A stretch of 57,739 nt of DNA, from IMG/VR virus record IMGVR_UViG_3300029305_003605; one strand, 5' to 3'. Below the pieces are notes generated by a model that was given only the letters and a program-made list of their open reading frames with translations, was not told the origin of the DNA and ran no database searches. The position numbers were made by a program, and so were the translations under genes. Shown here in pieces: positions 4,937-57,739 of this stretch; position 1 is the first letter of the stretch; each line of letters opens with the position of its first letter. Origin of the DNA: a virus.

Positions 4937-5824
4937 ATGGCAGTAGATGAAGTAAAAACAAATACGACAGTTTATGACAAAGACGGCAACGAATATCGTT
5001 ATGTTGAGTATGTGAATGGCAAACATCTGGTAAAAAAAGTTGTTGAAGTTTATACGGATAATTGCATAGATGATGAAGACGCAGATTACCAGACAATGTT
5101 CCCAGAAAAATGCGTAACGGATAATCTGGTAATGCTTGATGTAGTATATACCAGACCGCCTGTGCAGAGTGTAGCAAGCGAAATAGTAAATTTGCAAAGA
5201 CAGAAAAAAGAGTTAGAGGCAGAAATAGCAAATTATAAGGAAACGGTGGATTACTATATCCAGAGAGTTGAACAAATTGCAGAGCAGGATATTGATGAAT
5301 TGCTATATGACAGGTTAAAAGAAGTTAAAAACGCAGAATTATTGGTGAAGGCATTAACAGGCAAATTGCACAAATATCAAGTAACACAATGGAACTCTAT
5401 ACAGGAGTTGGAATACGGCATAGTGGGTGTAAATTTGAAGACAGGAGAAGTAAAACTATTTTACGAAGGGAATGATAGTTATTATTATGTTTCAAGACCT
5501 TTGAACGCACCGCACTATATGGACAGAGAAACGGCAGAACTCCGAGCAATAAATAATGTCAATGGAGAATATTGTCAGGGCAATATGCCGTCAAACTATA
5601 AGGATACAATGGAGTTAAATGCTCTTTTTGACAAACACGGCATACAGAGATCAGAAAAATGGAAAAAACATTTGGCAAAGATTTTTGAAAAAGAGGAGCA
5701 GAACATACAGGGCAGTATTGATAGTGCGTTGGCGGATATAAACAGATGTAATAAACGCATACAGGAGTACGGTGATAAACTTTGCGAAATTAAGCAAAAG
5801 CAACAGGAGCAGGAGCAAGCATAG
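4937..5824 (+). CDS. hypothetical coiled-coil protein
   Basis: 295-aa ORF with long heptad-like E/K/Q-rich stretches. Confidence 0.65.
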   Translation: MAVDEVKTNTTVYDKDGNEYRYVEYVNGKHLVKKVVEVYTDNCIDDEDADYQTMFPEKCVTDNLVMLDVVYTRPPVQSVASEIVNLQRQKKELEAEIANYKETVDYYIQRVEQIAEQDIDELLYDRLKEVKNAELLVKALTGKLHKYQVTQWNSIQELEYGIVGVNLKTGEVKLFYEGNDSYYYVSRPLNAPHYMDRETAELRAINNVNGEYCQGNMPSNYKDTMELNALFDKHGIQRSEKWKKHLAKIFEKEEQNIQGSIDSALADINRCNKRIQEYGDKLCEIKQKQQEQEQA

Positions 5825-6561
5825 TGAAAAGATTTTATTATCAGTTAAAGTGCAAAGAGCAGGATATTGACGGCAGGGTGGCTGATTATTGGTCGCACGC
5901 ATTTTTCAAAGGCATTGTAGAGGCAGAAGATAGTAAGTCAGCCAGAGCATATATAAAATCGCAGATTTTGAATAATGAAATGAGAAAAGACAATAACCTC
6001 TTATTGTCAATAATTGAGATTACAAAGGATACGGAATATTTAGAGGATTTTTTCAAACCCAGAGTATGTGCAGTATGCGGTAGCACTTTTTCAATGGCAA
6101 ACAATGAGTATTATGGACTTTATTGTTGCGAGGCGTGCCACGAGCAAGCAAAGTATGTGCAAAGGAAGGAAGATCAAGCGGTATTTTTTAGTTCTGATTG
6201 GAGTGAGGCATTCCCTGTTATTTACAGAATATATGACAAAAAGAATGATAAAAACTATATCGGGCAGACAATAAGGGCATTTACTTTGCGTTGGTGGGAA
6301 CATTACAAAAATTGGATACAAAGAGTACCGAATACATCAATCACCGATTTTGAATTTACTGTGTTGGAGATTTTACCAAAGACGGTAACAAAAGAGGAGT
6401 TATCACAGAGGGAGCAGTATTACATAGAAAAGTATAATGCACTAACAGAAGGTTATAATAGCAGAAACGAAGTAGCACAAATGATAGGAGAAATGTTAAG
6501 AAATGACGCACAACAAAAAATATTGGACGGAGAAGGTAGAGCAATTACCGCTAATTGTTAA
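5824..6561 (+). CDS. GIY-YIG nuclease with zinc-finger region
   Basis: GTG start overlapping the upstream TAG. Contains CAVCG...CCEACH cysteines, then VIYRIYDKKNDKNYIGQT, RWWEH and EQYYIEKYN..GYN (GIY-YIG motifs). Confidence 0.6.
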   Translation: MKRFYYQLKCKEQDIDGRVADYWSHAFFKGIVEAEDSKSARAYIKSQILNNEMRKDNNLLLSIIEITKDTEYLEDFFKPRVCAVCGSTFSMANNEYYGLYCCEACHEQAKYVQRKEDQAVFFSSDWSEAFPVIYRIYDKKNDKNYIGQTIRAFTLRWWEHYKNWIQRVPNTSITDFEFTVLEILPKTVTKEELSQREQYYIEKYNALTEGYNSRNEVAQMIGEMLRNDAQQKILDGEGRAITANC

Positions 6562-6565
6562 ACTT

Positions 6566-6670
6566 ATGGCAATAACTGCATTATTACCTGTATTGGTAAT
6601 TGCAACAATAGGAATGTTGTATATCAATACAATTCAGCATAACAGATTTGTAAAAAAGAGGCAAAAATAA
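6566..6670 (+). CDS. small membrane peptide (34 aa)
   Basis: Not in the ORF track (under 60 aa). Sequence MAITALLPVLVIATIGMLYI... forms a single hydrophobic helix. The stop overlaps the next ATG (TAATG). Confidence 0.4.
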   Translation: MAITALLPVLVIATIGMLYINTIQHNRFVKKRQK

Positions 6671-6882
6671 TGGGCGATAAATGGGTATTTGAAAATCACG
6701 AAGGCAGGCAGGAATATTACAAAAAGACGGTAATTGATAAAATCAAACAAATTGCGACAGATACATTGAATTTGGTAGATTATAAGACTTATTTCAAAAG
6801 AGATAACAAAAGTATTAAGCAGGAAGGATTTAAAGGTCTTCAACAGATTTTAGATGTAATAAAAGAGGCAGACGGAGAATGA
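6670..6882 (+). CDS. hypothetical protein
   Basis: 70-aa ORF with AGAGG upstream. Confidence 0.6.
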   Translation: MGDKWVFENHEGRQEYYKKTVIDKIKQIATDTLNLVDYKTYFKRDNKSIKQEGFKGLQQILDVIKEADGE

Positions 6883-7043
6883 TATTAAAATGTCCTTATT
6901 GCGAGCAACCGTTACACTATTATACCGAGTATGCAGACGCAGAAGTCAAAGGAAATAAAGTTTACCGATATTTGAAATGTAAAATATGCCAGAATTTATT
7001 TACGGCAATAGGCACAATAACAAATTATTGGGCAAAGAAATAG
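6879..7043 (+). CDS. zinc-ribbon protein (54 aa)
   Basis: Not in the ORF track. ATGA overlap with the upstream gene. Contains CPYC...x26...CKIC, two CxxC pairs. Confidence 0.5.
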   Translation: MILKCPYCEQPLHYYTEYADAEVKGNKVYRYLKCKICQNLFTAIGTITNYWAKK

Positions 7044-8315: not shown

Positions 8316-8350
8316 AGCAGGAGTAGGATAGTTCTCCTGCTTTTTCTTTT
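8316..8350 (+). terminator. Rho-independent terminator (end of early arm)
   Basis: AGCAGGAG-10 nt-CTCCTGCT followed by TTTTTCTTTTT. Confidence 0.75.
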
Positions 8351-8384
8351 TCTTAATAAATTTGTTAAAAATCTTAAAAAAATA

Positions 8385-8414
8385 TTGCACAATGTCAGTA
8401 TTTTATGGTAGAAT
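8385..8414 (+). promoter_or_regulatory. Promoter of the late/structural operon (TTGCAC-18-TAGAAT)
   Basis: -35 at 8385-8390 and -10 at 8409-8414. An AT-rich AAAAATCTTAAAAAA element lies upstream and is also present at 44284. Confidence 0.55.
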
Positions 8415-8459: not shown

Positions 8460-9137
8460 ATGGGTAAAGAAAATGAAGGCAATGGCAATATAAAATACGA
8501 CCAGAATAATTACCGTATTCATAGTGCCGAAAACAAACAGTTGATTAAAAAGAGTTTAGAGGATTGCGGAGCAGGCAGAAGTATCCTCATAGACAATGAG
8601 AATGAAATTATCGCAGGGAATGGGGTATATGAGCAGGCAAAAAAACTCGGAATACCTGTAAGAGTTATTGAAACAAAGGGAGATGAGTTAATTGCCGTAA
8701 AACGCACGGACTTAAAAACAGAAGACCAGAAAAGGAAAGTATTAGCGGTAATGGATAATACTACTTCCGATAGTTCAGAATTTGATATTGAAAAATTAGA
8801 AAACGATTTTGGCGGTATTGAATTATTAGATTTTGGTATAGAAGGAATAGGCGATGTAATGGCAGGAGATGATATACCAGAGGCAAGCGGTAGTGATAAT
8901 AAAAAAACATCTTCATCTGGGGGGGCAGATAGCGGTGATTATGGAGATTTGCAGGAGATAGGAGAAGACGCAGACGCAGACGGAGAAATGCAGAGAGTAA
9001 TTATTTGCTATAAGAAGGCAGATAAGCAGAAGTTAGAGCAGATACTCGGTACGGATATTACAAAAATTTTGTATAACATCAATGATTTAATTGACACAGA
9101 CACAGACGCAGGAGAGGAGCAGGGAGAAGATGAGTAA
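8460..9137 (+). CDS. ParB N-terminal-domain (ParB/Srx-fold) protein, paralog 1
   Basis: Contains NYRIHSAENK...CGAGRSILID...IIAGNGVYEQAKKLGIPVRVIE...LIAVKRTDL and has an acidic C-terminus. Confidence 0.6.
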   Translation: MGKENEGNGNIKYDQNNYRIHSAENKQLIKKSLEDCGAGRSILIDNENEIIAGNGVYEQAKKLGIPVRVIETKGDELIAVKRTDLKTEDQKRKVLAVMDNTTSDSSEFDIEKLENDFGGIELLDFGIEGIGDVMAGDDIPEASGSDNKKTSSSGGADSGDYGDLQEIGEDADADGEMQRVIICYKKADKQKLEQILGTDITKILYNINDLIDTDTDAGEEQGEDE

Positions 9138-9750
9138 TAATAACTTGAAATTTGACAAACGGAATTATCGTAAACACAATGAGAAAAACAAAAAACTCAT
9201 CAGAAAATCGCTTGAAGAATGTGGTACAGGTAGAAGTATCATCGTGGATAGCAATGATGAGATTATTGCAGGTAACGGTGTTTACGAGCAAGCAAAAGCG
9301 ATGAATATTCCTGTTAAGGTGGTTGAAACAGACGGCACGGAATTGATAGCGGTAAAACGCACAGACCTTAAAACATCTGATGATAAACGCACAAAATTGG
9401 CAATACTTGATAATAGCACGGCAGATAGTTCAGAAATGGATTACGCATTATTGCAGAAGGATTTTGAACTCGTGGATTTGATGAATATGGGTATTGACGC
9501 AGTTAATTTGAACATTGACGCAAACGCAAGCAATACAGACATATTTGAAAATTTGCCAGATGAGATTGCAGGGGAGAATTTAGAGGCAGATGAGTTAGAG
9601 GAGATAAAGGGAGATGATAGCACGGCTACGGAGAGAGTTGTTATCACTTTCAGACCAGACCAGAAGGCAGATGTTGAGCAGTTGCTCGGTATGCCGATAA
9701 ACAAAATTGTGTATGACGCAAAAGAAATATTTGCGGAAAATGGAATATAA
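9130..9750 (+). CDS. ParB N-terminal-domain protein, paralog 2
   Basis: Start taken at ATG 9130, which overlaps the paralog 1 stop by 8 nt. The first ~100 aa align residue by residue with paralog 1 (NYRKHNEKNK...CGTGRSIIVD...IIAGNGVYEQAKAMNIPVKVVE...LIAVKRTDL). Confidence 0.6.
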   Translation: MSNNNLKFDKRNYRKHNEKNKKLIRKSLEECGTGRSIIVDSNDEIIAGNGVYEQAKAMNIPVKVVETDGTELIAVKRTDLKTSDDKRTKLAILDNSTADSSEMDYALLQKDFELVDLMNMGIDAVNLNIDANASNTDIFENLPDEIAGENLEADELEEIKGDDSTATERVVITFRPDQKADVEQLLGMPINKIVYDAKEIFAENGI

Positions 9751-9765
9751 AAAGGGGAGAACAGA

Positions 9766-11010
9766 ATGGAATATTATGGCAGTCCTCGTTGGACAGGTGA
9801 AATAGCAGATTGCAGTATGCCTATGACAATGGATACATACAGTAATTGTAGTTATAATTGTCAGTATTGCTTTTCGCAATTTCAGAGAGCATTGGGTGGG
9901 TGCAAAGAGAATTATTTGCATAAGAAGGTAAAATGGGTAAACCCAGAGAAAATTAAGCAGATGTTTTTACACCCAGACAGTTCACAATTTGGGGAATACA
10001 TCAAACAAAGGAAGGTAATGCAATGGGGTGGACTTTCGGATCAGTTTGACGAGAATGAGAGAATGTACGGAATTACTCTCGACCTGTTGAAATTCTTCCG
10101 AAAAATTGAGTATCCAATATCTTTCTCAACAAAAAGCACTTGGTGGACAAAAGATGAGAGATACGCAAAGTTATTCAGAAACAATCCGAATTGGAATGTT
10201 AAGGTAAGTATTATTACATTAGAGGAGCATAAAGCCAGAATTATAGAGGCAGGGGTAGATAGTCCGCAGGAGAGATTAGAGGCGATAGAACGCATAGCAA
10301 ATTGGAACGCAGGGGGTGCAACACTCCGTCTGCGACCTTTTGTTATAGGAATTACTACACCGAGTTATCTTGACCTTATCAAAGAGGCACACAAAAGGGG
10401 TGCAACGGCAGTAAGTACAGAGTTTTTCTGCGTGGAGCAGAGAAGTACATTGTTAAAGCAAAAAATGCCGAAATTTAATGCTTTGTGCGGATTTGATTTA
10501 ATGCAATTCTATAAAAAATATTCTCCGCAACAGGGATATTTGAGATTAAACCGCAATGTTAAAAGACCTTTCGTACAGAAGATGAAGACATTGTGTGATG
10601 AGTTGGGTATGAGATTTTATGTATCCGATAGCCACTTCAAAGAGTTGAGTTGCAATGGAAGTTGTTGCGGATTGCCAGAGAATTGGAATTACAGTAGAGG
10701 GCAGTTCACACAGGCATTGTTAATCGCAAAAGAGAAGGGAGTAGTTACCTACCCAGAGATAAAAGAGGATATTGAAAAATTATTCTCTGGATTTGAGTGG
10801 GGAAGTGCAAACGGATTTAATTGCGGAAGTAGTGAGAAAAGAGCAAAATTTAAGGATATGACAATGGCGGATTATATGCACTACCTGTGGAATAACCCAC
10901 AAAATGGGCAAAGTCCGTACAAATTGTTTGAGGGAGTTCTCACACCAGAAGGCAAAGATGAGAACGGAGATATTATTTACGCATATAACGCAGACAGGAG
11001 CATAAAATAG
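9766..11010 (+). CDS. Radical SAM enzyme (SPL/COG1533-like)
   Basis: C28-x3-C32-x2-C35 (YSNCSYNCQYCF) near the N-terminus. 414 aa, with GGGGAGA upstream. Confidence 0.7.
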   Translation: MEYYGSPRWTGEIADCSMPMTMDTYSNCSYNCQYCFSQFQRALGGCKENYLHKKVKWVNPEKIKQMFLHPDSSQFGEYIKQRKVMQWGGLSDQFDENERMYGITLDLLKFFRKIEYPISFSTKSTWWTKDERYAKLFRNNPNWNVKVSIITLEEHKARIIEAGVDSPQERLEAIERIANWNAGGATLRLRPFVIGITTPSYLDLIKEAHKRGATAVSTEFFCVEQRSTLLKQKMPKFNALCGFDLMQFYKKYSPQQGYLRLNRNVKRPFVQKMKTLCDELGMRFYVSDSHFKELSCNGSCCGLPENWNYSRGQFTQALLIAKEKGVVTYPEIKEDIEKLFSGFEWGSANGFNCGSSEKRAKFKDMTMADYMHYLWNNPQNGQSPYKLFEGVLTPEGKDENGDIIYAYNADRSIK

Positions 11011-11011
11011 T

Positions 11012-11932
11012 ATGTCAAATAGAGTTGCTATAATTGAGTGTTTTAATAACTCCCAGAGTGCAAAGAAGGGTAATTCAACTATTGCTCATATCAGAAACAA
11101 TAAGATAATTGCAAAGTATCTGGGGTGCGAATATTTTATCACAGAGGCAGATTTATTTTGTGCGAGTGTAAATACTTGGGATACATTGTTATTCACGAAT
11201 AGTAGTGCGTTTGCAGACCACAAAGACATCAAAAGAATTTTGGAGAATAACAAATCCGCCAGAAAAATATTTATCACAAACGATTATAAAACTAATCCGC
11301 ATTCGGAGTTGGGTAAGTATGAGTATGAAGTTATCGGGAATTTTAGACCAAAGAAGAATAACAAAAGAAAACATTACTTCCTAAACCTTAATGCACTTAT
11401 GGCAAAAACACCGCTCAAACAGACCGAGAAAAAATTTGATTGTGTTTATTGGGGTGCGTGCAGAGAAGACAGGATACCATATTTTCAGAAATACTTGCAG
11501 AAGGGAATATATTTAAGCACTACCCAGAAGGCTCAACCGAATTTTATAAAGGCAGGGTGCACACCGCATTTTATTCCGCCTGTGGATTGGAGCAAAAGCC
11601 TCACAAACTTATTCCGATACAGTTTATACATAGAGGATAATTGGATACATAGCAATTTTCATAACCTCGCAAACAGGTGGTACGAGGCAGGAATTTATAA
11701 TAATGTTACCTTCTTTGACAGAGATTGTTTGAACACGATATACCAATCCGAGATTGCAGATGTGTTTGATGAGTATTACACCGTAGGCACATACAACGAA
11801 TTGCAGACAAAGATTGCAGAGTGCAATAAAGATTGGCAGAAACATTTGGAGATACAGAAGGAATGGCACAAAATTGACCTCATCACCAGAGATAAAGTGT
11901 TGCAGGAAATCAAAAGAATTGTGGAAGGGTAA
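11012..11932 (+). CDS. T4 beta-glucosyltransferase-like (GT-B) putative DNA glycosyltransferase
   Basis: Collinear with T4 Bgt as recalled: VAIIECFNN/IAIINMGNN, DTLLFTNSS/DRLIVVNSS, KIFITND/KIYYLFTD, FDCVYWGACREDR/LDVIYGGSFRSGQR, LYIEDNW..NRWYE/LIIGDKN..LRVWE. Starts 1 nt after the radical SAM stop. Confidence 0.55.
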   Translation: MSNRVAIIECFNNSQSAKKGNSTIAHIRNNKIIAKYLGCEYFITEADLFCASVNTWDTLLFTNSSAFADHKDIKRILENNKSARKIFITNDYKTNPHSELGKYEYEVIGNFRPKKNNKRKHYFLNLNALMAKTPLKQTEKKFDCVYWGACREDRIPYFQKYLQKGIYLSTTQKAQPNFIKAGCTPHFIPPVDWSKSLTNLFRYSLYIEDNWIHSNFHNLANRWYEAGIYNNVTFFDRDCLNTIYQSEIADVFDEYYTVGTYNELQTKIAECNKDWQKHLEIQKEWHKIDLITRDKVLQEIKRIVEG

Positions 11933-11944
11933 GGAATTGACACT

Positions 11945-12367
11945 ATGACAAAGAAGAAAAATCCAAAAGACCTTCAAAAAGTTGGAAGGAAAACAATACT
12001 TGAAACAGACTTGGTGGCTGTCCAAAAATTAGAGAGTGCATTTGCTATTGGTGCAGATGTATCTCTTGCCTGTTCCCACGCAGGAATTAGCAGGCAGACA
12101 TATTACGAATTTATCAAAAATCACCCAGAAATGGCTGACAAATATGCACAAATTCGCAGAAAACCGATTTTGAAGGCATTGAATACGGTAGTGGGAGCAT
12201 TAGACGATCCAAAAATGGCAAAGTGGTATTTAACCAAAAAATTGAGTGAAGAATTTGGATTGAGCATAGACATCGGACAAAAGAAGGAAAAACCGATAAG
12301 TCTATCTGACCTCACAGATGAGCAGGTATTGGAGTTGGCACAACAGGCGGTAAAGGAAGGAATATAG
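11945..12367 (+). CDS. terS: terminase small subunit
   Basis: 140 aa with an HTH-like CSHAGISRQTYYEFIK segment, lying immediately upstream of the large terminase. Confidence 0.55.
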   Translation: MTKKKNPKDLQKVGRKTILETDLVAVQKLESAFAIGADVSLACSHAGISRQTYYEFIKNHPEMADKYAQIRRKPILKALNTVVGALDDPKMAKWYLTKKLSEEFGLSIDIGQKKEKPISLSDLTDEQVLELAQQAVKEGI

Positions 12368-12577: not shown

Positions 12578-13978
12578 GTGGCAGGGGAAGATAACACAAA
12601 AGCAGAGTTAAAACGGCAGTTGCTATATGAGGCTCGTAAAGAGGCAATAAAGCGATGTGCAGAAAAGGGAGATATTTTGAATTGGGGTAAGTTTTTATTC
12701 CCAGACAAATTCTCCCTACCATTTTGTGAAGAGTTGCATAACTATATGATAGGCACATTTGAGGACAAACTCACCAGAACTCTTGCACCCAGAGGACACG
12801 CAAAGACCACTATTGAGGGATTTTTGTTGCCGATGTTCTACGGACTTAATCGCCCAGAGATATTTCAACACTTTTTGAATGTGCAGAACACCTCATCAAA
12901 GGCAATCAATTTGAATGTGTCTATGAAAACCGAGTTTGAGTGTAACGAGATGTTGATAGACATTTACGGAGATATGAGGGCATTAGATGAGAAGTGGACA
13001 GAGAAGACATTCGTATTGAAAAATGGGGTAATTTTTTCTTGCGTAGGTGCAGGAGAGAGTTTGAGGGGTATTCAGTACAAGAATAAAAGACCAGATTCTA
13101 TTATTGCAGATGATTTGTATGATGATGAGGATATTAACAACGCACAGAGAGTAGAAAAGAAAAATCGGTGGTTCTGGAGTACCTTATACCCTGCCAGAGC
13201 AAAGAGCAAAAAACACGCAGTACATATACAGGGTACGGCAATTAGTAAAATTGACCTTATGCACACAGGGGAAGGCACAAAGGTATTTAAGATAATTTAC
13301 CCAGACGGCAGAATACTGTGGAAGGAATTGTGGAGCAAAGAGGAGATAGAGCAGGAGAAAATTAACATCGGAAGTATTATCTTCTCCAGAGAGTACCTTA
13401 ACGAAGTGCGTGATGATGAAAGTAGTATTATCAAGGAAAGTTGGATACAGTTCTATAAGCACTCCGAGTTGTTACAGACAGGGGTAAAACTCACACCGAT
13501 TTGTGCATTAGATCCTGCGTGTGGGGAGAAACAGTTAAACGACTTTTCTGGATATTGTATCCTGCATACTGATAAAAACTTCAATGTGTATATTGAGAGA
13601 GTTGCAGAGATGAAGAATAGTTTTAATGCAAATATGAACGCAATAGACAGTTGGAATAGCAGATTTAATCCGAGTGTATTCGCAATAGAGGCAATAGGAG
13701 CATTTAAGCAACTCACACAGGAAGTAAAACGCACGAAAAACATACGACTTAAAGAAGTAACATCGGTAAAGGATAAAATCAGCAGATTAGAGGCACAGTC
13801 ATTCCGATTTGAGAATAGGAAGGTGTTCATAAACTCCGAGATGAGCAAGAAGGAAATGGACAATTTGATTGAACAGTTAATCAATAATTACCCTGTTCAC
13901 GATGATGTCCGAGATAGTGTGGTATTGGCTATGGAGCAGATAGGTAAACCGACAGGAATACGAGTAAGAAGACTATAA
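12578..13978 (+). CDS. terL: terminase large subunit
   Basis: GTG start. Walker A-like APRGHAKTT, Walker B-like SIIADDLYDDE, and a C-terminal nuclease-like region (ALDPACGEK...). 466 aa, upstream of the portal. Confidence 0.8.
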   Translation: MAGEDNTKAELKRQLLYEARKEAIKRCAEKGDILNWGKFLFPDKFSLPFCEELHNYMIGTFEDKLTRTLAPRGHAKTTIEGFLLPMFYGLNRPEIFQHFLNVQNTSSKAINLNVSMKTEFECNEMLIDIYGDMRALDEKWTEKTFVLKNGVIFSCVGAGESLRGIQYKNKRPDSIIADDLYDDEDINNAQRVEKKNRWFWSTLYPARAKSKKHAVHIQGTAISKIDLMHTGEGTKVFKIIYPDGRILWKELWSKEEIEQEKINIGSIIFSREYLNEVRDDESSIIKESWIQFYKHSELLQTGVKLTPICALDPACGEKQLNDFSGYCILHTDKNFNVYIERVAEMKNSFNANMNAIDSWNSRFNPSVFAIEAIGAFKQLTQEVKRTKNIRLKEVTSVKDKISRLEAQSFRFENRKVFINSEMSKKEMDNLIEQLINNYPVHDDVRDSVVLAMEQIGKPTGIRVRRL

Positions 13979-34466: not shown

Positions 34467-35936
34467 ATGGACATCGTTTCAAAAAGCACAGGTGATACCC
34501 TTTCGGCTAATGAGTTCAACCAAATTCCTAACGAATTGGAAGGACTTATCGCAAAAGGCGGATTAACACCAGACGACACAGACCTCACCCAAGTAGCAAA
34601 GGCAGTAAGCCAGATTGTTGCAGACGGTGATTTTTACACAACAGGGGGTACGGCAGACGCAATAACACTTTCGGCAGTATCACCGAGAATAGCACCTACC
34701 GTGCTAACAAACGGATTAAAGGCAAGATTTATTAGTGCGTCAGATAACACAGGAGCAGTTACAGTAAATCTTGGGGGATTGGGTGCAAAAACTGTTTACA
34801 AAAGAGGAGCAAACCTCGTAGCAGGAGATATTAAAGCAGGCGGAATATACGAATTAGTGTATATCTCCGCAAATTCAGCATTTGAGATTACACAATTTTT
34901 ACCAGATGTTGAAGAGGCAGATCCAAAAGACTTTCGTGTTAGCCAGAAGGATTTCATACAGGCATACGATAAAGACACTCTTGTTATAAAGGCAAATACC
35001 GTAATCACATTACAGGTAACAGGAGAAGATGAGCCGAGAATTTACAGAGCAAATCAAGATACTACATACGATTTGGCAAGTATTCTTGACACAGGTAGTG
35101 TTGCAGTTGGTACAGATTATTACATCTATCTTGTTGCAGGAAGTGGTAGCACGGTTAATGTTGTTGCCTCAACAAATAGCACATATCCGACAGGATATAC
35201 GGCAAACAATTCTCGTAAAATTGGCGGTTGCCACACATTATGTGTTTCGGTAACATCTGCAAATGCTCCTGCACTTGTAGATACAAACATTTGGAGTACC
35301 CACCCTGCTATTGGATATAACGCAGGAGATATTATTCCGAACTCTGTTTGGTGTTTAACTCACAGACCATTATCAGAGCCGAACGGAATGGTATATATTG
35401 ATAAGATTGATATGTGGGTAGATATTTACCTACAATCTGGTACAAACCTCACGGCAGGTAGTGTTTACGGTGCAACAATGACAAACTCACGCACTCAACA
35501 ACAACATCAATGGGATATGGAATTGCAGAATAAGAAATTGGCAACGGATAATGACTTCACAGTATTTGCAGAAGGAAGTAACCAAAAAACTGCGGTCAAA
35601 GGTTCTGCACAGCCAAACCCATTTAATGCAGGTGGACATTTAGACACGGCAAATAAGAGAATGATTAGTGGATATTTCGTAGAAGAATGTTGCGGACTTA
35701 TTTGGCAATGGCTTGACGAGTGTTCTGCTAATGGTGGCAGTAACTTCTCAACCTATGACGGAGAAGGTACAAGAGGTCAAACATACGGCAGTTCTTATTG
35801 CTTGCTTGCGGGCGGTCCTTGGGATCACTCCTCGTCTTGCGGTTCTCGTTGTCGGACTGGTCATAGTGTTCGCTCGTCTGTGTTTGCGGCTCACGGTGCT
35901 CGTGGGGTGAGCCGACCTAAAATCTTGAATGTGTAG
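34467..35936 (+). CDS. tail fibre / receptor-binding protein, DGR target (C-terminal CLec-like variable domain)
   Basis: 489 aa directly after the baseplate genes. The last ~45 codons contain the VR. The C-terminus is Cys/Gly/Trp-rich (CCGLIWQWLDE...LLAGGPW...). Confidence 0.8.
   Translation: MDIVSKSTGDTLSANEFNQIPNELEGLIAKGGLTPDDTDLTQVAKAVSQIVADGDFYTTGGTADAITLSAVSPRIAPTVLTNGLKARFISASDNTGAVTVNLGGLGAKTVYKRGANLVAGDIKAGGIYELVYISANSAFEITQFLPDVEEADPKDFRVSQKDFIQAYDKDTLVIKANTVITLQVTGEDEPRIYRANQDTTYDLASILDTGSVAVGTDYYIYLVAGSGSTVNVVASTNSTYPTGYTANNSRKIGGCHTLCVSVTSANAPALVDTNIWSTHPAIGYNAGDIIPNSVWCLTHRPLSEPNGMVYIDKIDMWVDIYLQSGTNLTAGSVYGATMTNSRTQQQHQWDMELQNKKLATDNDFTVFAEGSNQKTAVKGSAQPNPFNAGGHLDTANKRMISGYFVEECCGLIWQWLDECSANGGSNFSTYDGEGTRGQTYGSSYCLLAGGPWDHSSSCGSRCRTGHSVRSSVFAAHGARGVSRPKILNV
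35800..35910 (+). repeat. DGR variable repeat (VR)
   Basis: 111 bp aligning without gaps to 36198..36308. It has 92 identities and 19 mismatches, all opposite TR adenines. Confidence 0.9.
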
Positions 35937-36496
35937 TTTTGTAACAATTTCACAAACACAAACACAAAGCAAGATACAAAGAAAAATTAAGTGGTACGCA
36001 AGTGCGAAGGGGGAGCAGTACGGAGCAAGCGAAGACAACGGTGCGGAGTACATCTGCACAAAGGGGCGGAATATCCGTCAATCGCAAATCCTGTGAAGGC
36101 ACACCGTATGCAAACCTTTCGTGATTACCACTTGATAACACCAGACGGCAGAAATGTCGTAGGGGGTTATAGGTTGAAAGTTACAAAGTTCACAGGCACT
36201 TGCTTGCAGGCGGTAATTGGAATAACTCATCGTCTTGCAGTTCTCGTTGTCGGAATGGTAATAATGTTCGCTCGAATGTGAATGCGAATAACGGTGCTCG
36301 TGAGGTGATATGGGGTGCAGTACCCGACTTTTTTCGGCTACTTCAAAAAAACTCAAAGGGAAGTAACTCCATCTGAATTTTCAACCCTGTCTATAATAAC
36401 CATAAAAGGCAAAATACGAAACGGAGTGAGTGTCTTGTTGGTAGGGAGTGTAACAATTCCCGAAGATGAGGCACTCTTGATATATGGAGAAAAGAA
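35937..36496 (+). ncRNA. Putative DGR template RNA region (TR plus GC-rich non-coding flanks/spacer)
   Basis: No credible ORF. Visibly more G+C-rich than the surrounding genome, and it contains the TR. By analogy with the Bordetella phage DGR RNA (upstream sequence-TR-spacer). Confidence 0.4.
36198..36308 (+). repeat. DGR template repeat (TR)
   Basis: Invariant copy. In the VR frame it is rich in AAT/AAC codons (LLAGGNWNNSSSCSSRCRNGNNVRSNVNANNGARE). It contains 26 adenines, 19 of which are substituted in the VR. Confidence 0.9.
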
Positions 36497-37594
36497 TTGG
36501 TAAAAAGACACGGCAACCTGTGGGAGCAGGTTATCAGCAAAGAGAATTTTTTATTAGCATATCAAAAGTCAAAGAAAGGCAAAGGGAATTTTGTAGCGGT
36601 ACAGAGATTTCAACATAATTGGGAAGAGAAGTTAGAGGCGGTAAGGCAACTGTTAATCACAAAGACTTTTCATACTGCACCGTATAATCGGAAGACGGTA
36701 TATGAGCCAAAAGAGAGGATAATATATGTACTCCCATACAAGCCAGACAGAATAGTGCAACACGCATTGATGAATATTTTAACACCGATTTTTGAGAGGT
36801 TATTTATCGCAGACAGTTATGCGTGTATTAAGTACAGAGGGCAACACAAAGGTAGTATGAGATGTATGGAATTTGTGAGAAGGAATAAATACTGTTTGAA
36901 GTGTGATATACGCAAATTTTACCCGAGCATAGACCAGAAGATATTATATGAGATGTTGGAGAGAGTTATTAAGGATAAAGATGTCCTGTGGCTACTCAAA
37001 GACATCGTATTTAGTTTTGAAGGGGGGAAGAATGTACCAATCGGCAATTTGACTTCCCAATGGTTCGGAAATTTTTACCTAACAAAAATGGATAGATTTA
37101 TTAAGCAGGAATTGAGGATAAAGGATTATGTTAGATATTGTGATGATTTTTGTTTATTTGGAAATGATAAAAAATATTTGCGAGAATGCAAAAGAAGAAT
37201 AGAGGAGTTTATCGGCAGAGAGTTGAAGTTGAAGTTTAGCAAAGCAGATGTATTCAACTGTAAGCAGGGAGTGGACTTCTTGGGGTATAGACATTTTGAT
37301 AATTACATACTCCTACGCAAGAGTACGGCAAAGAGAATTATACGCAGAATGGGGAAAGTCCAAAAAGAATTAGAATGTGGTATAATTACAGAAGAACAGT
37401 ACAGGTCAATTATAACATCAACTTATGGTTGGCTCAAACACGCAAATACTCACAATCTTCAAGTAAAATTACAACTCGGCAAACTTTTAGCAGAGATTAA
37501 ACAGAAGATTAGAGAGGAGCGAAAGATCAGAAAAGCAGAAAAAGAAAAACTTAAAAAACTGCAAGCAGAGGAGAAACAGGACAATGGACAATGA
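36497..37594 (+). CDS. DGR reverse transcriptase
   Basis: TTG start 7 nt after GGAG. N-terminal KRHGNLWEQV..., the IGNLTSQWFGNFYL ((I/L)GxxxSQ) motif and the RYCDDF catalytic box. 365 aa. Confidence 0.85.
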   Translation: MVKRHGNLWEQVISKENFLLAYQKSKKGKGNFVAVQRFQHNWEEKLEAVRQLLITKTFHTAPYNRKTVYEPKERIIYVLPYKPDRIVQHALMNILTPIFERLFIADSYACIKYRGQHKGSMRCMEFVRRNKYCLKCDIRKFYPSIDQKILYEMLERVIKDKDVLWLLKDIVFSFEGGKNVPIGNLTSQWFGNFYLTKMDRFIKQELRIKDYVRYCDDFCLFGNDKKYLRECKRRIEEFIGRELKLKFSKADVFNCKQGVDFLGYRHFDNYILLRKSTAKRIIRRMGKVQKELECGIITEEQYRSIITSTYGWLKHANTHNLQVKLQLGKLLAEIKQKIREERKIRKAEKEKLKKLQAEEKQDNGQ

Positions 37595-46182: not shown

Positions 46183-46681
46183 AGACAAAGCATATTGGAG
46201 AGGCGGATACACTTTAGAAGACCTCGTAAAATATTGCGACAATAGTGGATTAAACAGAGAAGACATACAGATAGTATGCGGTGTGTATGACATTGATAAA
46301 AATGGCGATAACAAAGGGTGCAAAATGTGTGCGGTGCAAAATTTCAGACTTTGCATTACAGACGGCTTTTTGGAAATTATGACGAGAAAAGACAGTTATC
46401 AAGACGCAGACGCATATTATAAAACAAAAATTACTTATGAAGATACAGGAAAAATGTTGAAATATACAGGAAGGGGTGCAGACTGTTATTGCACAACACA
46501 ATGGGAATATTTTGATAAAAGTATGTATTTGACACAAATATGTAACCCAGACAAACTTGAACATACAGAATGGTACGATGTTCACGACATTAAAGGGGAT
46601 ATTTTTCATATTACAGTAGGCAACAAAACCTACAAAAATTGCACTTGGGCAAACAACAGAATAGTGAGGGTTACAAAATGA
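46160..46681 (+). CDS. hypothetical Cys-rich protein
   Basis: 173-aa ORF overlapping both neighbours. Confidence 0.55.
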   Translation: MTTVANGKDKAYWRGGYTLEDLVKYCDNSGLNREDIQIVCGVYDIDKNGDNKGCKMCAVQNFRLCITDGFLEIMTRKDSYQDADAYYKTKITYEDTGKMLKYTGRGADCYCTTQWEYFDKSMYLTQICNPDKLEHTEWYDVHDIKGDIFHITVGNKTYKNCTWANNRIVRVTK

Positions 46682-48354
46682 GCAATGCAGAAACAACACA
46701 ATTAGTATTGGAATTAAAAGAGCAGGAGCAGGATTATGAATTTTATCCTACTACAAAGGAAATAATTGCTTGCATACACGAGCATATCAATAGCCATTGG
46801 GAAATTGAACATTATGCTAACAAAGTGCTTGATATAGGGTGTGGCACAGAAAACTTCCGAAAACATATTAAAGAATTACACCACGAAAGAGAATTGTGGA
46901 AGGAAAATGCAAGCAAAAGACCAGACGGCAGTTACGATAACGGAATAAGAAATGCACGAAATTGGTACATTTCAGAATATTTTGTTATGGAAAAATCTAA
47001 AATACTTTTGCAACAATTAGACAAAAAAACAATAGTTCTTGGAACAGATTTTTACGATAACACATTAGTAGATAAAGAAATGGACTTAATTTTCTGCAAT
47101 CCACCGTATTCAGCATACGCAGAATGGACAAAAAGAATAATTGCAGAGAGTAATTGCAAATACATTTATTTAGTTATCCCAGAGCGGTGGAAGGAAGACG
47201 CAGAAATACAAAAAACTATTGAAACTATCGGAGCAGAGGCAACGGCAATAGGTTCATTTGATTTTCTAAATGCAGAGAGATCCGCAAGAGCAAAAGTAGA
47301 TGTTGTTTTCATTGATAAAACAAAAGTACCTACGGATAATGCTTTTGACCGTTGGTTCGATGAAACTTTTAAGATGAGAGATAAGGAAGAAAAATCCGAG
47401 TGGAAAGTAGAAGAGGAGAAGGAAAAAGACATTAAAAACGAATTAGTTGGCGGAAAAAACAAAGGTGAAATGCTGATAAATTTATACGAGGCAGAGCAAA
47501 GAAAACTCTACGAGCATTTTTTAGCGATAAGTGGACTTGATGTTGATATTTTAGAGAGTATCAACATACAGAAATCAGCCGTCAAGAAGGCATTAAAAGA
47601 ACGGATACAGGGATTGAAAACATTATATTGGAAAATAGTTTTTGATGAATTAGATGAGATTACAAGCAGGCTGACATCAAAAACCAGAGAGAAGATGTTT
47701 AACAGGTTCAAAAGTTTGCAAACGGTAGATTTTACGATACAGAATATTTACAGTTTAATAATTTGGGTAATCAAAAACGCAAATAATTATTACAACGACC
47801 AGATGATAGAGTTCTTTAAGACTTTATCTTCACCAGAAAATTGCAGGGCATACAAAAGCAACGACAGAATTGGCACTCGTAATTGGAGATTTGCCGATGA
47901 GAATAGCCATTATACATTGGATTACCGTATTATTTGCGATAATTTAAGTTTTAGCAATTATTACAGTTGGGATAAAGAGATAGACAAATGGAAAGCAATG
48001 CAAACTATTGACGACATTTGCACGATAGCAAATAATTTGAATTTTGAAGTCGGAATTAGAGATGTACCAAAGGATTATGGCAAAAAATATACAATTCTTT
48101 TGAAAAACGGAGAAACTTTTTGCGATTTCAGAATTTATAAAAACGGCAATACACATTTGAAATTCAATAAAGAATTTATGAAGGCATTGAATGTAGAAGT
48201 CAGCAGACTTTTGGGGTGGATAAACAAACCAGAAGATATTGCCAGAGAATTTGATGATGAAATCAAAGAAGGTGCAGAAAAGTATTTTAAGTATAATATG
48301 CAATTTAGTATCACAGGCAATGGCATAAAACTACTCGGTACTACAAAAAGTTAA
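46678..48354 (+). CDS. DNA methyltransferase, NPPY (N6-adenine type) with large C-terminal domain
   Basis: ATGA-coupled start. Motif I VLDIGCGTENF, motif IV DLIFCNPPYS, N-terminal YEFYPTTKEII, and an extra C-terminal region of about 380 aa. Confidence 0.7.
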   Translation: MSNAETTQLVLELKEQEQDYEFYPTTKEIIACIHEHINSHWEIEHYANKVLDIGCGTENFRKHIKELHHERELWKENASKRPDGSYDNGIRNARNWYISEYFVMEKSKILLQQLDKKTIVLGTDFYDNTLVDKEMDLIFCNPPYSAYAEWTKRIIAESNCKYIYLVIPERWKEDAEIQKTIETIGAEATAIGSFDFLNAERSARAKVDVVFIDKTKVPTDNAFDRWFDETFKMRDKEEKSEWKVEEEKEKDIKNELVGGKNKGEMLINLYEAEQRKLYEHFLAISGLDVDILESINIQKSAVKKALKERIQGLKTLYWKIVFDELDEITSRLTSKTREKMFNRFKSLQTVDFTIQNIYSLIIWVIKNANNYYNDQMIEFFKTLSSPENCRAYKSNDRIGTRNWRFADENSHYTLDYRIICDNLSFSNYYSWDKEIDKWKAMQTIDDICTIANNLNFEVGIRDVPKDYGKKYTILLKNGETFCDFRIYKNGNTHLKFNKEFMKALNVEVSRLLGWINKPEDIAREFDDEIKEGAEKYFKYNMQFSITGNGIKLLGTTKS

Positions 48355-56407: not shown

Positions 56408-56845
56408 ATGAAATTAGAAAAAAATTATAGCAAAACAAGAATTTACAAAATTTATGTTTCAATGAGAAACAGATGTGAAAGAAAAACAAGCATAAATTAT
56501 GAACGATATGGCGGTAGAGGCATAAAGGTTTGTAAATGGTGGCAAAAATTTGAAAATTTTTATAAATGGGCTATCAAAAACGGATACAATAACGATTTAA
56601 GTCTTGATAGAATAAATAATAATAAAGGTTATACACCTAAAAATTGTAGGTGGGTAGATAGAAAAACACAACAAAGAAATACTCGTGCAAATGTTGTTAT
56701 TGAATTAAACGGGGAAAGACATTGTATTGCAGAATGGGCAGAAATAACAGGAATTAACCATTCTACAATAAGAAGTCGTTATAGTAGAAAATGGAAAGCA
56801 GAAGATATATTAACAAAAAAAAGGAGAAAATTATGTCAAATTTAA
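56408..56845 (+). CDS. HNH/AP2-like DNA-binding endonuclease-family protein
   Basis: RIYKIYVSMRNRC...YERYGGRGIKVCKWW...LSLDRINNNKGYTPKNCRWV is the family pattern. Confidence 0.55.
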   Translation: MKLEKNYSKTRIYKIYVSMRNRCERKTSINYERYGGRGIKVCKWWQKFENFYKWAIKNGYNNDLSLDRINNNKGYTPKNCRWVDRKTQQRNTRANVVIELNGERHCIAEWAEITGINHSTIRSRYSRKWKAEDILTKKRRKLCQI

Positions 56846-57421: not shown

Positions 57422-57739
57422 ATGAAAACAAAATTTTGTAAAAATTGCGGAAAAGAAAAATCAATTAAGGAATTTTATCGACATTCAAACACAAAAGACG
57501 GATATTTTAATATATGCAAAGAATGCGTGATAAAAAGAGCAAAAAATTATAGAAAAGAAAATATAGAAAAAGTAAGAGAATACGACAGAAACCGACCAAA
57601 TAAAGAAGAACGATATGTAAAAAATAAAGAGTATGTAAAAAATAATAGAAAACGTGTTAATGAGGCAAAATTAAATTGGAAAAAAAGAAATAAAGATAAG
57701 GCAAATGCTTATGTAAAAGTAAATAGAGCAATAGAAAAA
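57422..57739 (+). CDS. HNH endonuclease, N-terminal part (continues at 2..286)
   Basis: Begins MKTKFCKNCGKEK...ICKEC (zinc finger). The ORF is open to the window end and continues in frame at the window start, for 158 aa in total. Confidence 0.75.
   Translation, partial: MKTKFCKNCGKEKSIKEFYRHSNTKDGYFNICKECVIKRAKNYRKENIEKVREYDRNRPNKEERYVKNKEYVKNNRKRVNEAKLNWKKRNKDKANAYVKVNRAIEK
57613..57739. repeat. Terminal overlap identical to 1..127
   Basis: See the first feature. Confidence 0.9.

Follow-up and report, generated by a model that had tools for sequence, protein, structure and literature searches.

How does a phage that encodes a likely relative of the T4 DNA beta-glucosyltransferase (Bgt, or BGT) obtain the hydroxylated base on which such an enzyme would act, when neither known route to that base can be detected in its genome? 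The known post-replicative hypermodification of phage DNA has a hydroxymethyl-pyrimidine as its starting point, which arises either before replication, by thymidylate-synthase homologues, or after replication, by oxygen-dependent dioxygenases. The question is raised by the IMG/VR virus record IMGVR_UViG_3300029305_003605, a stretch of 57,739 nt which is referred to here, at its full length, as the window. Two adjacent genes are at issue, a radical S-adenosylmethionine (SAM) enzyme resembling spore photoproduct lyase (SPL), encoded at 9766..11010 (414 aa; rSAM), and a T4 Bgt-like glycosyltransferase of the GT-B fold, encoded at 11012..11932 (306 aa; BGTL). An earlier note, made from the letters of the window, had proposed that the radical-SAM enzyme creates an acceptor group on polymerised DNA and that the transferase glycosylates it. 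Both open reading frames (ORFs), their lengths and the single nucleotide between them were re-derived identically from the sequence. The genome is circularly closed, again as claimed in that note, since its first 127 bases (1-127) are repeated as its last 127 (57613-57739), leaving a unit length of 57,612 bp, and every gene of the window lies on the + strand. In our reading, the four genes of the region 8460..11932 constitute a ParB-linked island which heads the packaging operon and hypermodifies DNA after its replication; rSAM there takes the place of a dioxygenase and BGTL glycosylates the product. We favour this reading tentatively, as one that stands slightly nearer to doubt than to belief.

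Assignment of the transferase is based on its structure match and on its conserved residues. Public metagenomes yielded 131 BGTL homologues, 40 of which were used both for modelling and for the analysis of conservation. The AlphaFold2 model of BGTL generated from this alignment has a predicted local distance difference test score (pLDDT) of 90.9 and a predicted template modelling score (pTM) of 0.88. Foldseek comparison of the model with the PDB placed T4 BGT at all of ranks 1-4 (E 3e-11 to 7e-9, TM 0.69-0.72), while the next glycosyltransferase follows at E 2e-5, six orders of magnitude behind, so that T4 BGT is closer to BGTL than any other solved glycosyltransferase. Other high structural matches are protein and lipid glycosyltransferases (E 1e-5 to 1e-3). 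Residues R151, R154, R222 and E225 of BGTL are in register with R191, R195, R269 and E272 of T4 in both BLASTP and hhalign, each of them a weak alignment, and all four are invariant across the 40 homologues; the correspondence of R151 and R154 with T4 R191 and R195 bears out the earlier assignment of arginines that bind the phosphates of uridine diphosphate (UDP). Position 91 is an aspartate or glutamate in 40 of 40 homologues and follows the predicted strand E84-89 (strand 4). The general base of T4 BGT, D100, is also located after strand 4, and D91 is the candidate counterpart in BGTL. The model thus predicts that BGTL resembles a nucleotide-sugar-dependent glycosyltransferase with an acidic residue placed as the T4 general base.

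The T4 sequence blocks which the earlier note had cited (MKIAIINMGNN, DRLIVVNSS, KIYYLFTD, LDVIYGGSFRSGQR and LIIGDKN...LRVWE) agree with the T4 record. However, the whole-length likeness that it had drawn from them holds at the level of structure and not at the level of sequence, where pairwise BLASTP of BGTL with T4 Bgt gave an E-value of 0.05 and hhalign against the single T4 sequence a probability of 2%. Searches of Pfam, PHROG, NCBIfam and the PDB sequences (phmmer) with BGTL gave no match, and tblastn against 50,697 phage records did not reach T4. Sequence-level proof of Bgt homology has therefore failed by every one of these methods, and structural comparison alone is informative. Judged by its predicted fold, BGTL is a remote relative of T4 Bgt and not a member of the T4 family by sequence criteria. 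Its acceptor is probably not 5-hydroxymethylcytosine (hmC, 5hmC) of the T4 type, since the genome contains no hmC pathway.

For the gene upstream, the assignment as an SPL-like radical-SAM enzyme is based on the cysteine motif, a structure match and partial matches to family models. The motif C28-x3-C32-x2-C35, already pointed out in the earlier note, is present and invariant in 27 rSAM homologues. A second group of conserved cysteines (C222, C241, C300 and C301, with C296 nearby) is kept down to a relative of 49% identity and would fit a second metal site in the C-terminal part of the protein. The structure model of rSAM has a pLDDT of 83 and all of its top Foldseek matches are radical-SAM enzymes. 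The best match in the PDB is SPL (4rh0, E 5.5e-6, TMt 0.55), and the next radical-SAM enzyme is found at E 1.1e-4, about 20-fold behind, which is a modest margin. Family models are approached from below. Pfam Radical_SAM (PF04055) gives 27.5 bits against a cut-off of 29.5, the best partial NCBIfam matches are PA0069 (54 bits, cut-off 360) and Rv2578c (35 bits, cut-off 430), and the NCBIfam SPL model matches only a 49%-identical relative of rSAM, at 16.5 bits against a cut-off of 400. The likeness to SPL and COG1533 enzymes claimed in the earlier note is thus sustained by the nearest structure and by the best partial matches, whereas the NCBIfam scores remain far under the family cut-offs. The family itself is large, with 2,407 protein clusters at an E-value of 1e-3 or better, the best 120 of which are all at least 68% identical. 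It is spread over 426 IMG/VR contigs and about 60 species-level genomes, including some integrated prophages, and is absent from all 50,697 deposited phage genomes. We propose that rSAM is an enzyme oxidising the C5-methyl group of thymine in DNA.

No gene for a conventional acceptor-making enzyme could be identified in the window, in line with the earlier claim that this closed genome lacks a hydroxymethylase, a TET/JBP dioxygenase and a C5-methyltransferase. Pfam searches for Thymidylat_synt, TET_JBP and C5-methyltransferase domains were negative in 84 + strand ORFs of at least 70 aa, in two shorter ones and in the ORF over the circular junction, which encodes a small zinc-finger/HNH-type protein. 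The six-frame translation of the window gave no phmmer match to four seeds of the thymidylate-synthase family, among them those of T4 (gp42), phage M6 (gp58) and E. coli (ThyA). Among the early ORFs, the single large one without annotation (4937..5824) is coiled-coil-like, with no HxD motif in its sequence, and the sole methyltransferase-like gene (46639..48354, 571 aa) matches DUF4942 (E 2e-17) with a weak match to a methyltransferase small domain. Beyond the window, the flanks of rSAM genes and 80 further loci centred on the primase-helicase gene, which lies about 7 kb upstream of rSAM, add up to about 3.5 Mb, and none of this sequence yielded a thymidylate-synthase homologue. Four rSAM-bearing contigs of prophage type are included in this sample, and in these the coverage extends over the integrase, the lysogeny switch and the replication genes as far as the terminase.

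The genes which accompany the rSAM family elsewhere lend support to an acceptor made in DNA. The comparison comprised 80 IMG/VR loci and 61 loci from species-level genomes on the rSAM side, and 44 IMG/VR loci on the BGTL side. In the 80 IMG/VR rSAM loci, clustered by gene content, the typical order is SAM synthetase, ParB, c4, c2, GNAT, rSAM, small and large terminase subunits (TerS and TerL) and portal, where c4 and c2 denote gene clusters. The profile of c4 matches CBA120 orf248 (E 3e-17), which itself matches Pfam ADDT (2e-57) and appears to be the counterpart of ViI gp247, a characterised serine:DNA transferase; from these profile matches we assign c4 as an amino-acid:DNA transferase (AADT). 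The profile of c2 matches M6 gp54 (E 4e-9), a characterised 5-hydroxymethyldeoxyuridine (5-hmdU) DNA kinase that matches Pfam HMUDK, and a variant kinase in other islands matches Pfam Ploopntkinase3. Both the 5-hmdU DNA kinase and the AADT are known to act on 5-hmdU in polymeric DNA (Lee et al. 2021, PMC8989533). An alternative neighbour, found in 15 rSAM loci, matches Pfam TAGT (TET-associated glycosyltransferase) and the PHROG of the T-even beta-glucosyl-HMC alpha-glucosyltransferase; it represents a second glycosyltransferase family unrelated to BGTL and is often located beside a HAD-plus-kinase protein resembling the sugar-activating enzyme of bioRxiv 2023.12.21.572611. A glutamine amidotransferase (GATase) is present in some islands.

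Counted over rSAM loci with more than 3 kb of upstream sequence, a ParB gene is present in 59 of 59 IMG/VR loci and 45 of 45 species-level genome loci (104 of 104 in total), and at least one of kinase, AADT, TAGT and BGTL is present in 48 and 41 of them, respectively (89 of 104). The remaining loci mostly carry only GNAT. rSAM is retained in islands lacking AADT, namely TAGT-only islands, GNAT-only islands and the BGTL island described here. Since 89 of the 104 loci carry enzymes whose characterised relatives need a 5-hydroxymethyl-pyrimidine, and no thymidylate-synthase homologue lies near, the role of rSAM as the acceptor maker gains support. The association of one rSAM family with enzymes of phosphoryl, glycosyl (in two unrelated folds) and acetyl transfer fits a product with a nucleophilic hydroxyl. 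In many islands a phage SAM synthetase with all three S-AdoMet synthetase domains lies directly upstream of ParB (for instance at 5968-7005 of locus L139 and 6543-7574 of L141), which fits a stoichiometric use of SAM.

Sister phages (loci L209-L280) have the same backbone as these phages, with primase-helicase, SAM synthetase, both terminase subunits and portal genes in common. Between SAM synthetase and TerS they carry a protein of about 520 aa (for instance at 8767-10323 of L270) with an N-terminal ParB domain and the C-terminal amino-methyltransferase motifs CFAGDS and SCPPYF. Going by these motifs and the shared neighbours, the rSAM island and the putative ParB::DNA-methyltransferase fusion are alternative occupants of one DNA-modification slot. 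Named hosts of the rSAM family belong to gut and rumen taxa, among them Segatella copri (one complete chromosome), Prevotella, Phocaeicola, Selenomonas ruminantium, Clostridia, Oscillospiraceae and Victivallales. Most of these taxa are strictly anaerobic, so that a dioxygenase, which requires O2, could not function in them.

The two ParB-fold genes which the earlier note had placed upstream of the pair were recovered with PHROG 620 and 498 at E 1e-15 to 1e-16. ParB1 (8460..9137, + strand, 225 aa) matches PHROG 498/620 at E 1e-16, and ParB2 (9130..9750, + strand, 206 aa from the ATG at 9130, although the mechanically called ORF begins at the TTG at 9091) matches the same two at E 1e-15; the best PHROG match of both is 498, annotated as 'DNA methyltransferase'. 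The proteins are 48% identical to each other. ParB1 consists of an N-terminal domain of the ParB nucleotide-binding type, an acidic low-complexity linker and a small C-terminal domain, and no helix-turn-helix or other DNA-binding family was matched in it. Phage Fe(II)/2-oxoglutarate (2OG) thymine dioxygenases need a cognate ParB-like activator, which has nucleotide-binding and C-terminal domains and no DNA-binding domain (O'Toole et al. 2026, PNAS, PMC13229309). The connection between ParB-like proteins and DNA modification that the earlier note had drawn has thus been established experimentally for these dioxygenases. ParB2 scores 107 bits against rSAM-linked ParBs elsewhere and ParB1 72 bits, while ParB1 scores 52.4 bits against the BGTL-linked ParBs of other phages and ParB2 47.5 bits. 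By gene clustering, a ParB gene stands immediately before BGTL in 34 of 46 BGTL loci. These scores would fit ParB2-rSAM and ParB1-BGTL as cognate activator pairs, in this one lineage only.

From the predicted folds, the conservation of residues for donor binding and, as candidates, for catalysis, the arrangement of the operon, the lack of known acceptor-making genes and the comparative context, we infer a scheme in which the substrate, the hydroxylation chemistry, the part played by the ParB proteins and the sugar transfer would be as follows. Late in infection rSAM, probably helped by ParB2, would flip out a thymine in double-stranded, replicated phage DNA. The 5'-deoxyadenosyl radical would take a hydrogen from the thymine C5-methyl group to form an allylic radical, the same as SPL and the phage M6 enzyme gp53 handle. 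One-electron oxidation of this radical, possibly via a second Fe-S site made of the conserved C-terminal cysteines, and addition of water would yield 5-hydroxymethyluracil (5hmU) without molecular oxygen. BGTL, perhaps with ParB1, would move a sugar from a nucleotide-sugar to the hydroxyl of 5hmU, and the product would be a base-J-like glycosyl-hmU formed shortly before packaging. Thymine is the more likely substrate than cytosine, and the acceptor could accordingly be 5hmU rather than 5hmC; the coupling of rSAM to BGTL is part of the same conditional scheme. It is possible, though somewhat more doubtful than our reading of the island itself, that rSAM is the first member of a family of radical-SAM thymine hydroxylases which, assisted by ParB and independent of oxygen, make 5hmU on double-stranded DNA in phages of strict anaerobes.

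Several observations weigh against this proposal, among them the distribution of the two genes. Of the 44 IMG/VR BGTL loci, one (L003) is this same phage, ending within BGTL, and the other 43, at 50% BGTL identity or less, contain no rSAM gene; their conserved order is ParB (about 180 aa), BGTL, TerS and TerL. In BGTL clade II, no TET/JBP or thymidylate-synthase family was found by Pfam among 53 representatives of gene clusters within 10 kb upstream. As such ParB-BGTL-TerS loci lack rSAM, TET/JBP and thymidylate synthase alike, the transferase has no general need for the rSAM enzyme, and ParB alone may be its conserved partner. Conversely, BGTL was found in 0 of 80 IMG/VR rSAM loci and in 1 of 61 species-level genome loci, and that one (L142) is this phage binned into a Clostridia metagenome-assembled genome. 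The pair is thus not general, 140 of 141 rSAM loci being without BGTL and 43 BGTL loci being without rSAM, and the idea of a general two-gene rSAM-BGTL system was rejected because none was found outside one lineage. The searches also have their limits as evidence of absence, since the whole-genome acceptor search covers the window while other loci are represented by their flanks; the Pfam screen for 5mYOX dioxygenases covered the window and the BGTL clade II loci, and the primase-centred loci were screened for thymidylate-synthase homologues only. Moreover, Pfam TET_JBP misses 5-17% of phage dioxygenases (PMC13229309). The single radical-SAM enzyme known in DNA hypermodification, gp53 of phage M6, belongs to the same broad clade as rSAM and is a tailoring isomerase, not an acceptor maker (PMC8989533). 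A search of a limited set of papers returned no description of a radical-SAM route to a hydroxymethyl-pyrimidine in DNA. To our knowledge, DNA-base hydroxylation is not among the reactions demonstrated for radical-SAM enzymes.

The exact rSAM-BGTL pair is limited to one rumen/gut lineage, and in the closest relatives of the window it is accompanied by a further gene. Relatives at 71% BGTL identity have the order ParB-ParB-rSAM413-rSAM314-BGTL-TerS, and rumen contigs with 58-59% BGTL and 49% rSAM identity have the order rSAM312(SPASM)-BGTL-ParB-ParB-rSAM433-TerS (numbers denote lengths in aa), so that the pair is kept in a rearranged relative with 49% identity in rSAM and 59% in BGTL. The second, SPASM-type radical-SAM gene (312-314 aa; Pfam Radical_SAM and SPASM) overlaps the start of BGTL by 4-16 bases in each of three layouts among these relatives; the gene was located at L204 5072-6016, L133 9066-10004 and L203 5066-6004 and also in L085, L089, L190 and L194. 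It is missing from the window, and in another locus it adjoins a TET-associated glycosyltransferase. Its role may lie in tailoring, either of the sugar or of the base once glycosylated, and, as a further point against the coupling proposed here, it may be the real partner of BGTL. T4-like phages offer another setting. Cronobacter phages S13 and LPCS28 and Citrobacter phage Ci1 have a BGTL homologue, which in S13 (L001 5072-6732, gp056-gp057) and Ci1 (L002) shows 27-28% identity and is located between uvsY and uvsW. In the 180 of 182 kb of S13 that were searched there is no gp42-like gene, no T4 Bgt and no rSAM, and only a Td-type thymidylate synthase, which likewise speaks against an rSAM-dependent acceptor; annotations of S13 include Alc, DenA and DenB-like. 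A tie between BGTL and hmC through the T4-like phages was dropped because S13 lacks a gp42-like gene. The neighbour of BGTL in S13 is a 244-aa ORF with a weak likeness to the C-terminal domain of BGTL-linked ParBs (hhalign 36%), on which we do not rely.

These distributions are among the grounds for a different view, in which two independent ParB-linked modules merely share a hotspot. ParB1-BGTL would then act on an acceptor that does not depend on rSAM, for which an unmodified base, a group of the backbone or of a terminus, and a modification introduced by the host come into question; ParB2-rSAM would carry out a separate modification, and the adjacency of the genes would reflect nothing else than an insertion hotspot between ParB and TerS. 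The occurrence of ParB-BGTL-TerS without a radical-SAM gene in about 40 diverse loci, the BGTL homologue of S13 without rSAM or gp42, the cargo slot revealed by the rSAM island and the ParB::methyltransferase fusion as alternative fillers, and the two ParB paralogues, each with its higher score against the ParBs that accompany one of the two enzymes, are all consistent with it. However, the fold of BGTL is not known to glycosylate any group of unmodified DNA, and BGTL keeps an acidic residue at the candidate position of the T4 general base, which deprotonates a hydroxyl. The rSAM family is otherwise found amid group-transfer enzymes that depend on a hydroxyl, including TAGT in 15 loci, and in diverged relatives the pair has outlasted a change of gene order. 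We regard independent modules as unlikely, while giving them more weight than any other alternative to an rSAM-made acceptor. As to the earlier hypothesis itself, the acceptor-making role of the radical-SAM enzyme draws support from the gene context in 89 of 104 loci and from the absent acceptor genes, whereas the specific pair is not general. Phages of anaerobes would share a much larger and so far undescribed system of hypermodification, built on ParB-linked radical-SAM enzymes, in which the rSAM-BGTL pair is a rare combination.

Another possibility is that rSAM is a tailoring enzyme like gp53, acting on a group at the thymine C5-methylene or on the sugar, with the hydroxymethyl base supplied by an unrecognised enzyme or by the host. 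M6 gp53 is an SPL-like radical-SAM enzyme which isomerises glycinyl-thymine, and the 5-hmdU of M6 is made via a thymidylate-synthase homologue (PMC8989533). rSAM shares its NCBIfam pattern with gp53, the two are linked by a remote hhalign match (E 1e-4, probability 54%), and the AADT and 5-hmdU kinase co-occur with the rSAM family as they do with gp53. Orthology of rSAM to gp53 was nevertheless rejected, as the similarity is remote only. The partner of gp53, a pyridoxal-phosphate (PLP) decarboxylase, is not among the recurrent island genes identified; islands without AADT keep rSAM, where an amino-acid isomerase would have no substrate; and no other source of the hydroxymethyl group was seen in the window or in the integrase-to-terminase stretches of its relatives. 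A tailoring role thus appears improbable, more so than independent modules. Least credible of all is the view that neither enzyme modifies DNA bases, rSAM being an SPL-type repair lyase or a peptide or cofactor maturase and BGTL glycosylating virion proteins or a cell-envelope polymer. One source labels the COG1533-type family 'DNA repair photolyase', and protein and lipid glycosyltransferases do occur among the weaker structural matches of BGTL at the E-values given above. Yet repair of ultraviolet photoproducts would be of little use in gut and rumen anaerobes, and linkage to ParB in all 104 loci, together with the strong linkage to DNA-base kinases, transferases and SAM synthetase, argues for a role in DNA modification. 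The same is suggested by the lead of T4 BGT over all other glycosyltransferases and by the ParB::DNA-methyltransferase in the same slot of the sister phages. We consider a function outside DNA bases very improbable, and return to the preferred reading, in which rSAM makes the acceptor and BGTL glycosylates it.

If this reading is true, it would fill a gap. Neither known route to a hydroxymethyl base was detected in these phages, yet phages of the gut and rumen carry the downstream machinery, and oxidation of the thymine methyl group by a radical-SAM enzyme would supply the missing step. It would represent a new reaction type for radical-SAM chemistry and would extend the principle of the ParB activator to a second enzyme superfamily. 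The rSAM family would then be the anaerobic counterpart of the JBP/5mYOX dioxygenases, and its product would serve kinases, transferases of amino acids and acetyl groups and two unrelated families of glycosyltransferases in varying combinations. As gut viromes of humans and ruminants are rich in members of the family, many gut phages may carry modified DNA, and this may affect restriction, targeting by clustered regularly interspaced short palindromic repeats (CRISPR), sequencing and phage engineering. Cultivable lysogens with rSAM islands exist in Segatella copri HDE04 (prophage at about 1.93-1.95 Mb of NZ_CP152346.1) and Selenomonas ruminantium S137, whose islands carry a kinase and lack both AADT and glycosyltransferase, and the minimal gene set is small (ParB and rSAM, with or without BGTL).

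The island is embedded in a compact operon. The start of rSAM is preceded by AAAGGGGAGAACAGA-ATG, its TAG stop is separated from the ATG of BGTL by 1 nt, and the ribosome-binding site of BGTL, CAGGAG (GGAG-type), lies inside the 3' end of the rSAM gene. Downstream follow TerS (11945..12367, + strand) and TerL (12578..13978, + strand), which flank the island on this side not only here but in almost every related locus, and the portal gene also lies downstream in the window. A terminator-like hairpin (8319-8344) and a promoter-like site (8386-8414), both consensus matches only, occupy 8319..8414 on the + strand, which is possibly the start of a ParB1-ParB2-rSAM-BGTL-TerS-TerL operon. The number of matches in the promoter and terminator scan was no greater than in shuffled sequence, and the tight spacing of the genes downstream is therefore a stronger argument for one transcription unit than these consensus matches. 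Elsewhere in the window, a complete diversity-generating retroelement is located at 34467-37594. It comprises a target ORF (34467..35936) with a variable repeat (35801-35910), a template repeat (36199-36308) which is 84% identical to the variable repeat, and a reverse-transcriptase ORF (36497..37594). Pfam RVT_1 and the second domain of Mtd were matched among the ORFs of the structural region, and RVT_1 was given to 36497..37594 by position. Two proteins resembling homing endonucleases, one with a GIY-YIG domain (5824-6561) and one HNH endonuclease (56408-56845; PHROG 3377, E 2e-54), are encoded in the early and replication regions. Among 33 small non-structural ORFs, one matches a CxxCxxCC zinc/iron-chelating domain (E 9e-8) and one is weakly MazG-like (E 0.009).

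Comparison with known systems places the island between several of them. T4 DNA beta-glucosyltransferase (CAZy GT63; PDB 1j39, 1qkj and 1bgt) shares with BGTL the two-domain GT-B fold (TM 0.72), the Arg/Arg/Arg/Glu set that holds the UDP phosphates and a phage-borne gene beside DNA-handling genes. In contrast to it, BGTL is only 14-16% identical, is 45 residues shorter, has no sequence family match and adjoins ParB and terminase genes rather than a deoxycytidylate (dCMP) hydroxymethylase. The logic of hydroxylation followed by glucosylation that is proposed here resembles that of base J in kinetoplastids, where JBP1/2 hydroxylates thymine and the glucosyltransferase JGT glucosylates 5hmU in a eukaryotic, oxygen-requiring pathway. 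However, JBP is a 2OG dioxygenase and JGT has a GT-A fold, and both are unrelated to rSAM and BGTL.

The best solved match of rSAM, the spore photoproduct lyase SplB (4rh0), has the same CX3CX2C radical-SAM core and performs thymine methyl/methylene radical chemistry in double-stranded DNA, as proposed for rSAM. The two differ in that rSAM shows 17% identity and a TM of 0.46-0.55, extends C-terminally by about 190 further residues, conserved cysteines among them, and is found in the context of DNA modification, not repair. Furthermore, SPL regenerates SAM, whereas phages with rSAM often bring a SAM synthetase. Pseudomonas phage M6 gp53 is likewise SPL-like. It shares with rSAM the NCBIfam pattern of PA0069, Rv2578c and mobile pair B, is encoded together with an AADT and a 5-hmdU DNA kinase, as are members of the rSAM family, and has a chemistry centred on a thymine C5-methylene radical in DNA, as would rSAM. 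Against this stand the remoteness of their similarity, tblastn giving no match, the persistence of the rSAM family in AADT-less islands, and the deoxyuridylate (dUMP) hydroxymethylase of thymidylate-synthase type and PLP decarboxylase of M6, neither of which was found in rSAM islands.

The closest parallel in gene content is offered by the clusters of thymine dioxygenases, which are 'consistently linked' with GATases, P-loop kinases and AADTs and whose commonest neighbours are glycosyltransferases, ParBs and terminases (PMC13229309). As in clade C1 of these 5mYOX clusters, a stand-alone ParB composed of a nucleotide-binding domain, a linker and a C-terminal domain lies beside the putative base-oxidising enzyme of the rSAM islands, and kinase, AADT, GATase, glycosyltransferases and GNAT are assembled near the terminase. 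Post-replicative action on polymeric DNA is a further likeness, proposed for the rSAM islands from their genes alone. What sets the rSAM islands apart is the enzyme in the constant position, an SPL-like radical-SAM protein instead of an Fe(II)/2-oxoglutarate dioxygenase, along with the SAM synthetase that is often added and the gut and rumen anaerobes that serve as hosts.

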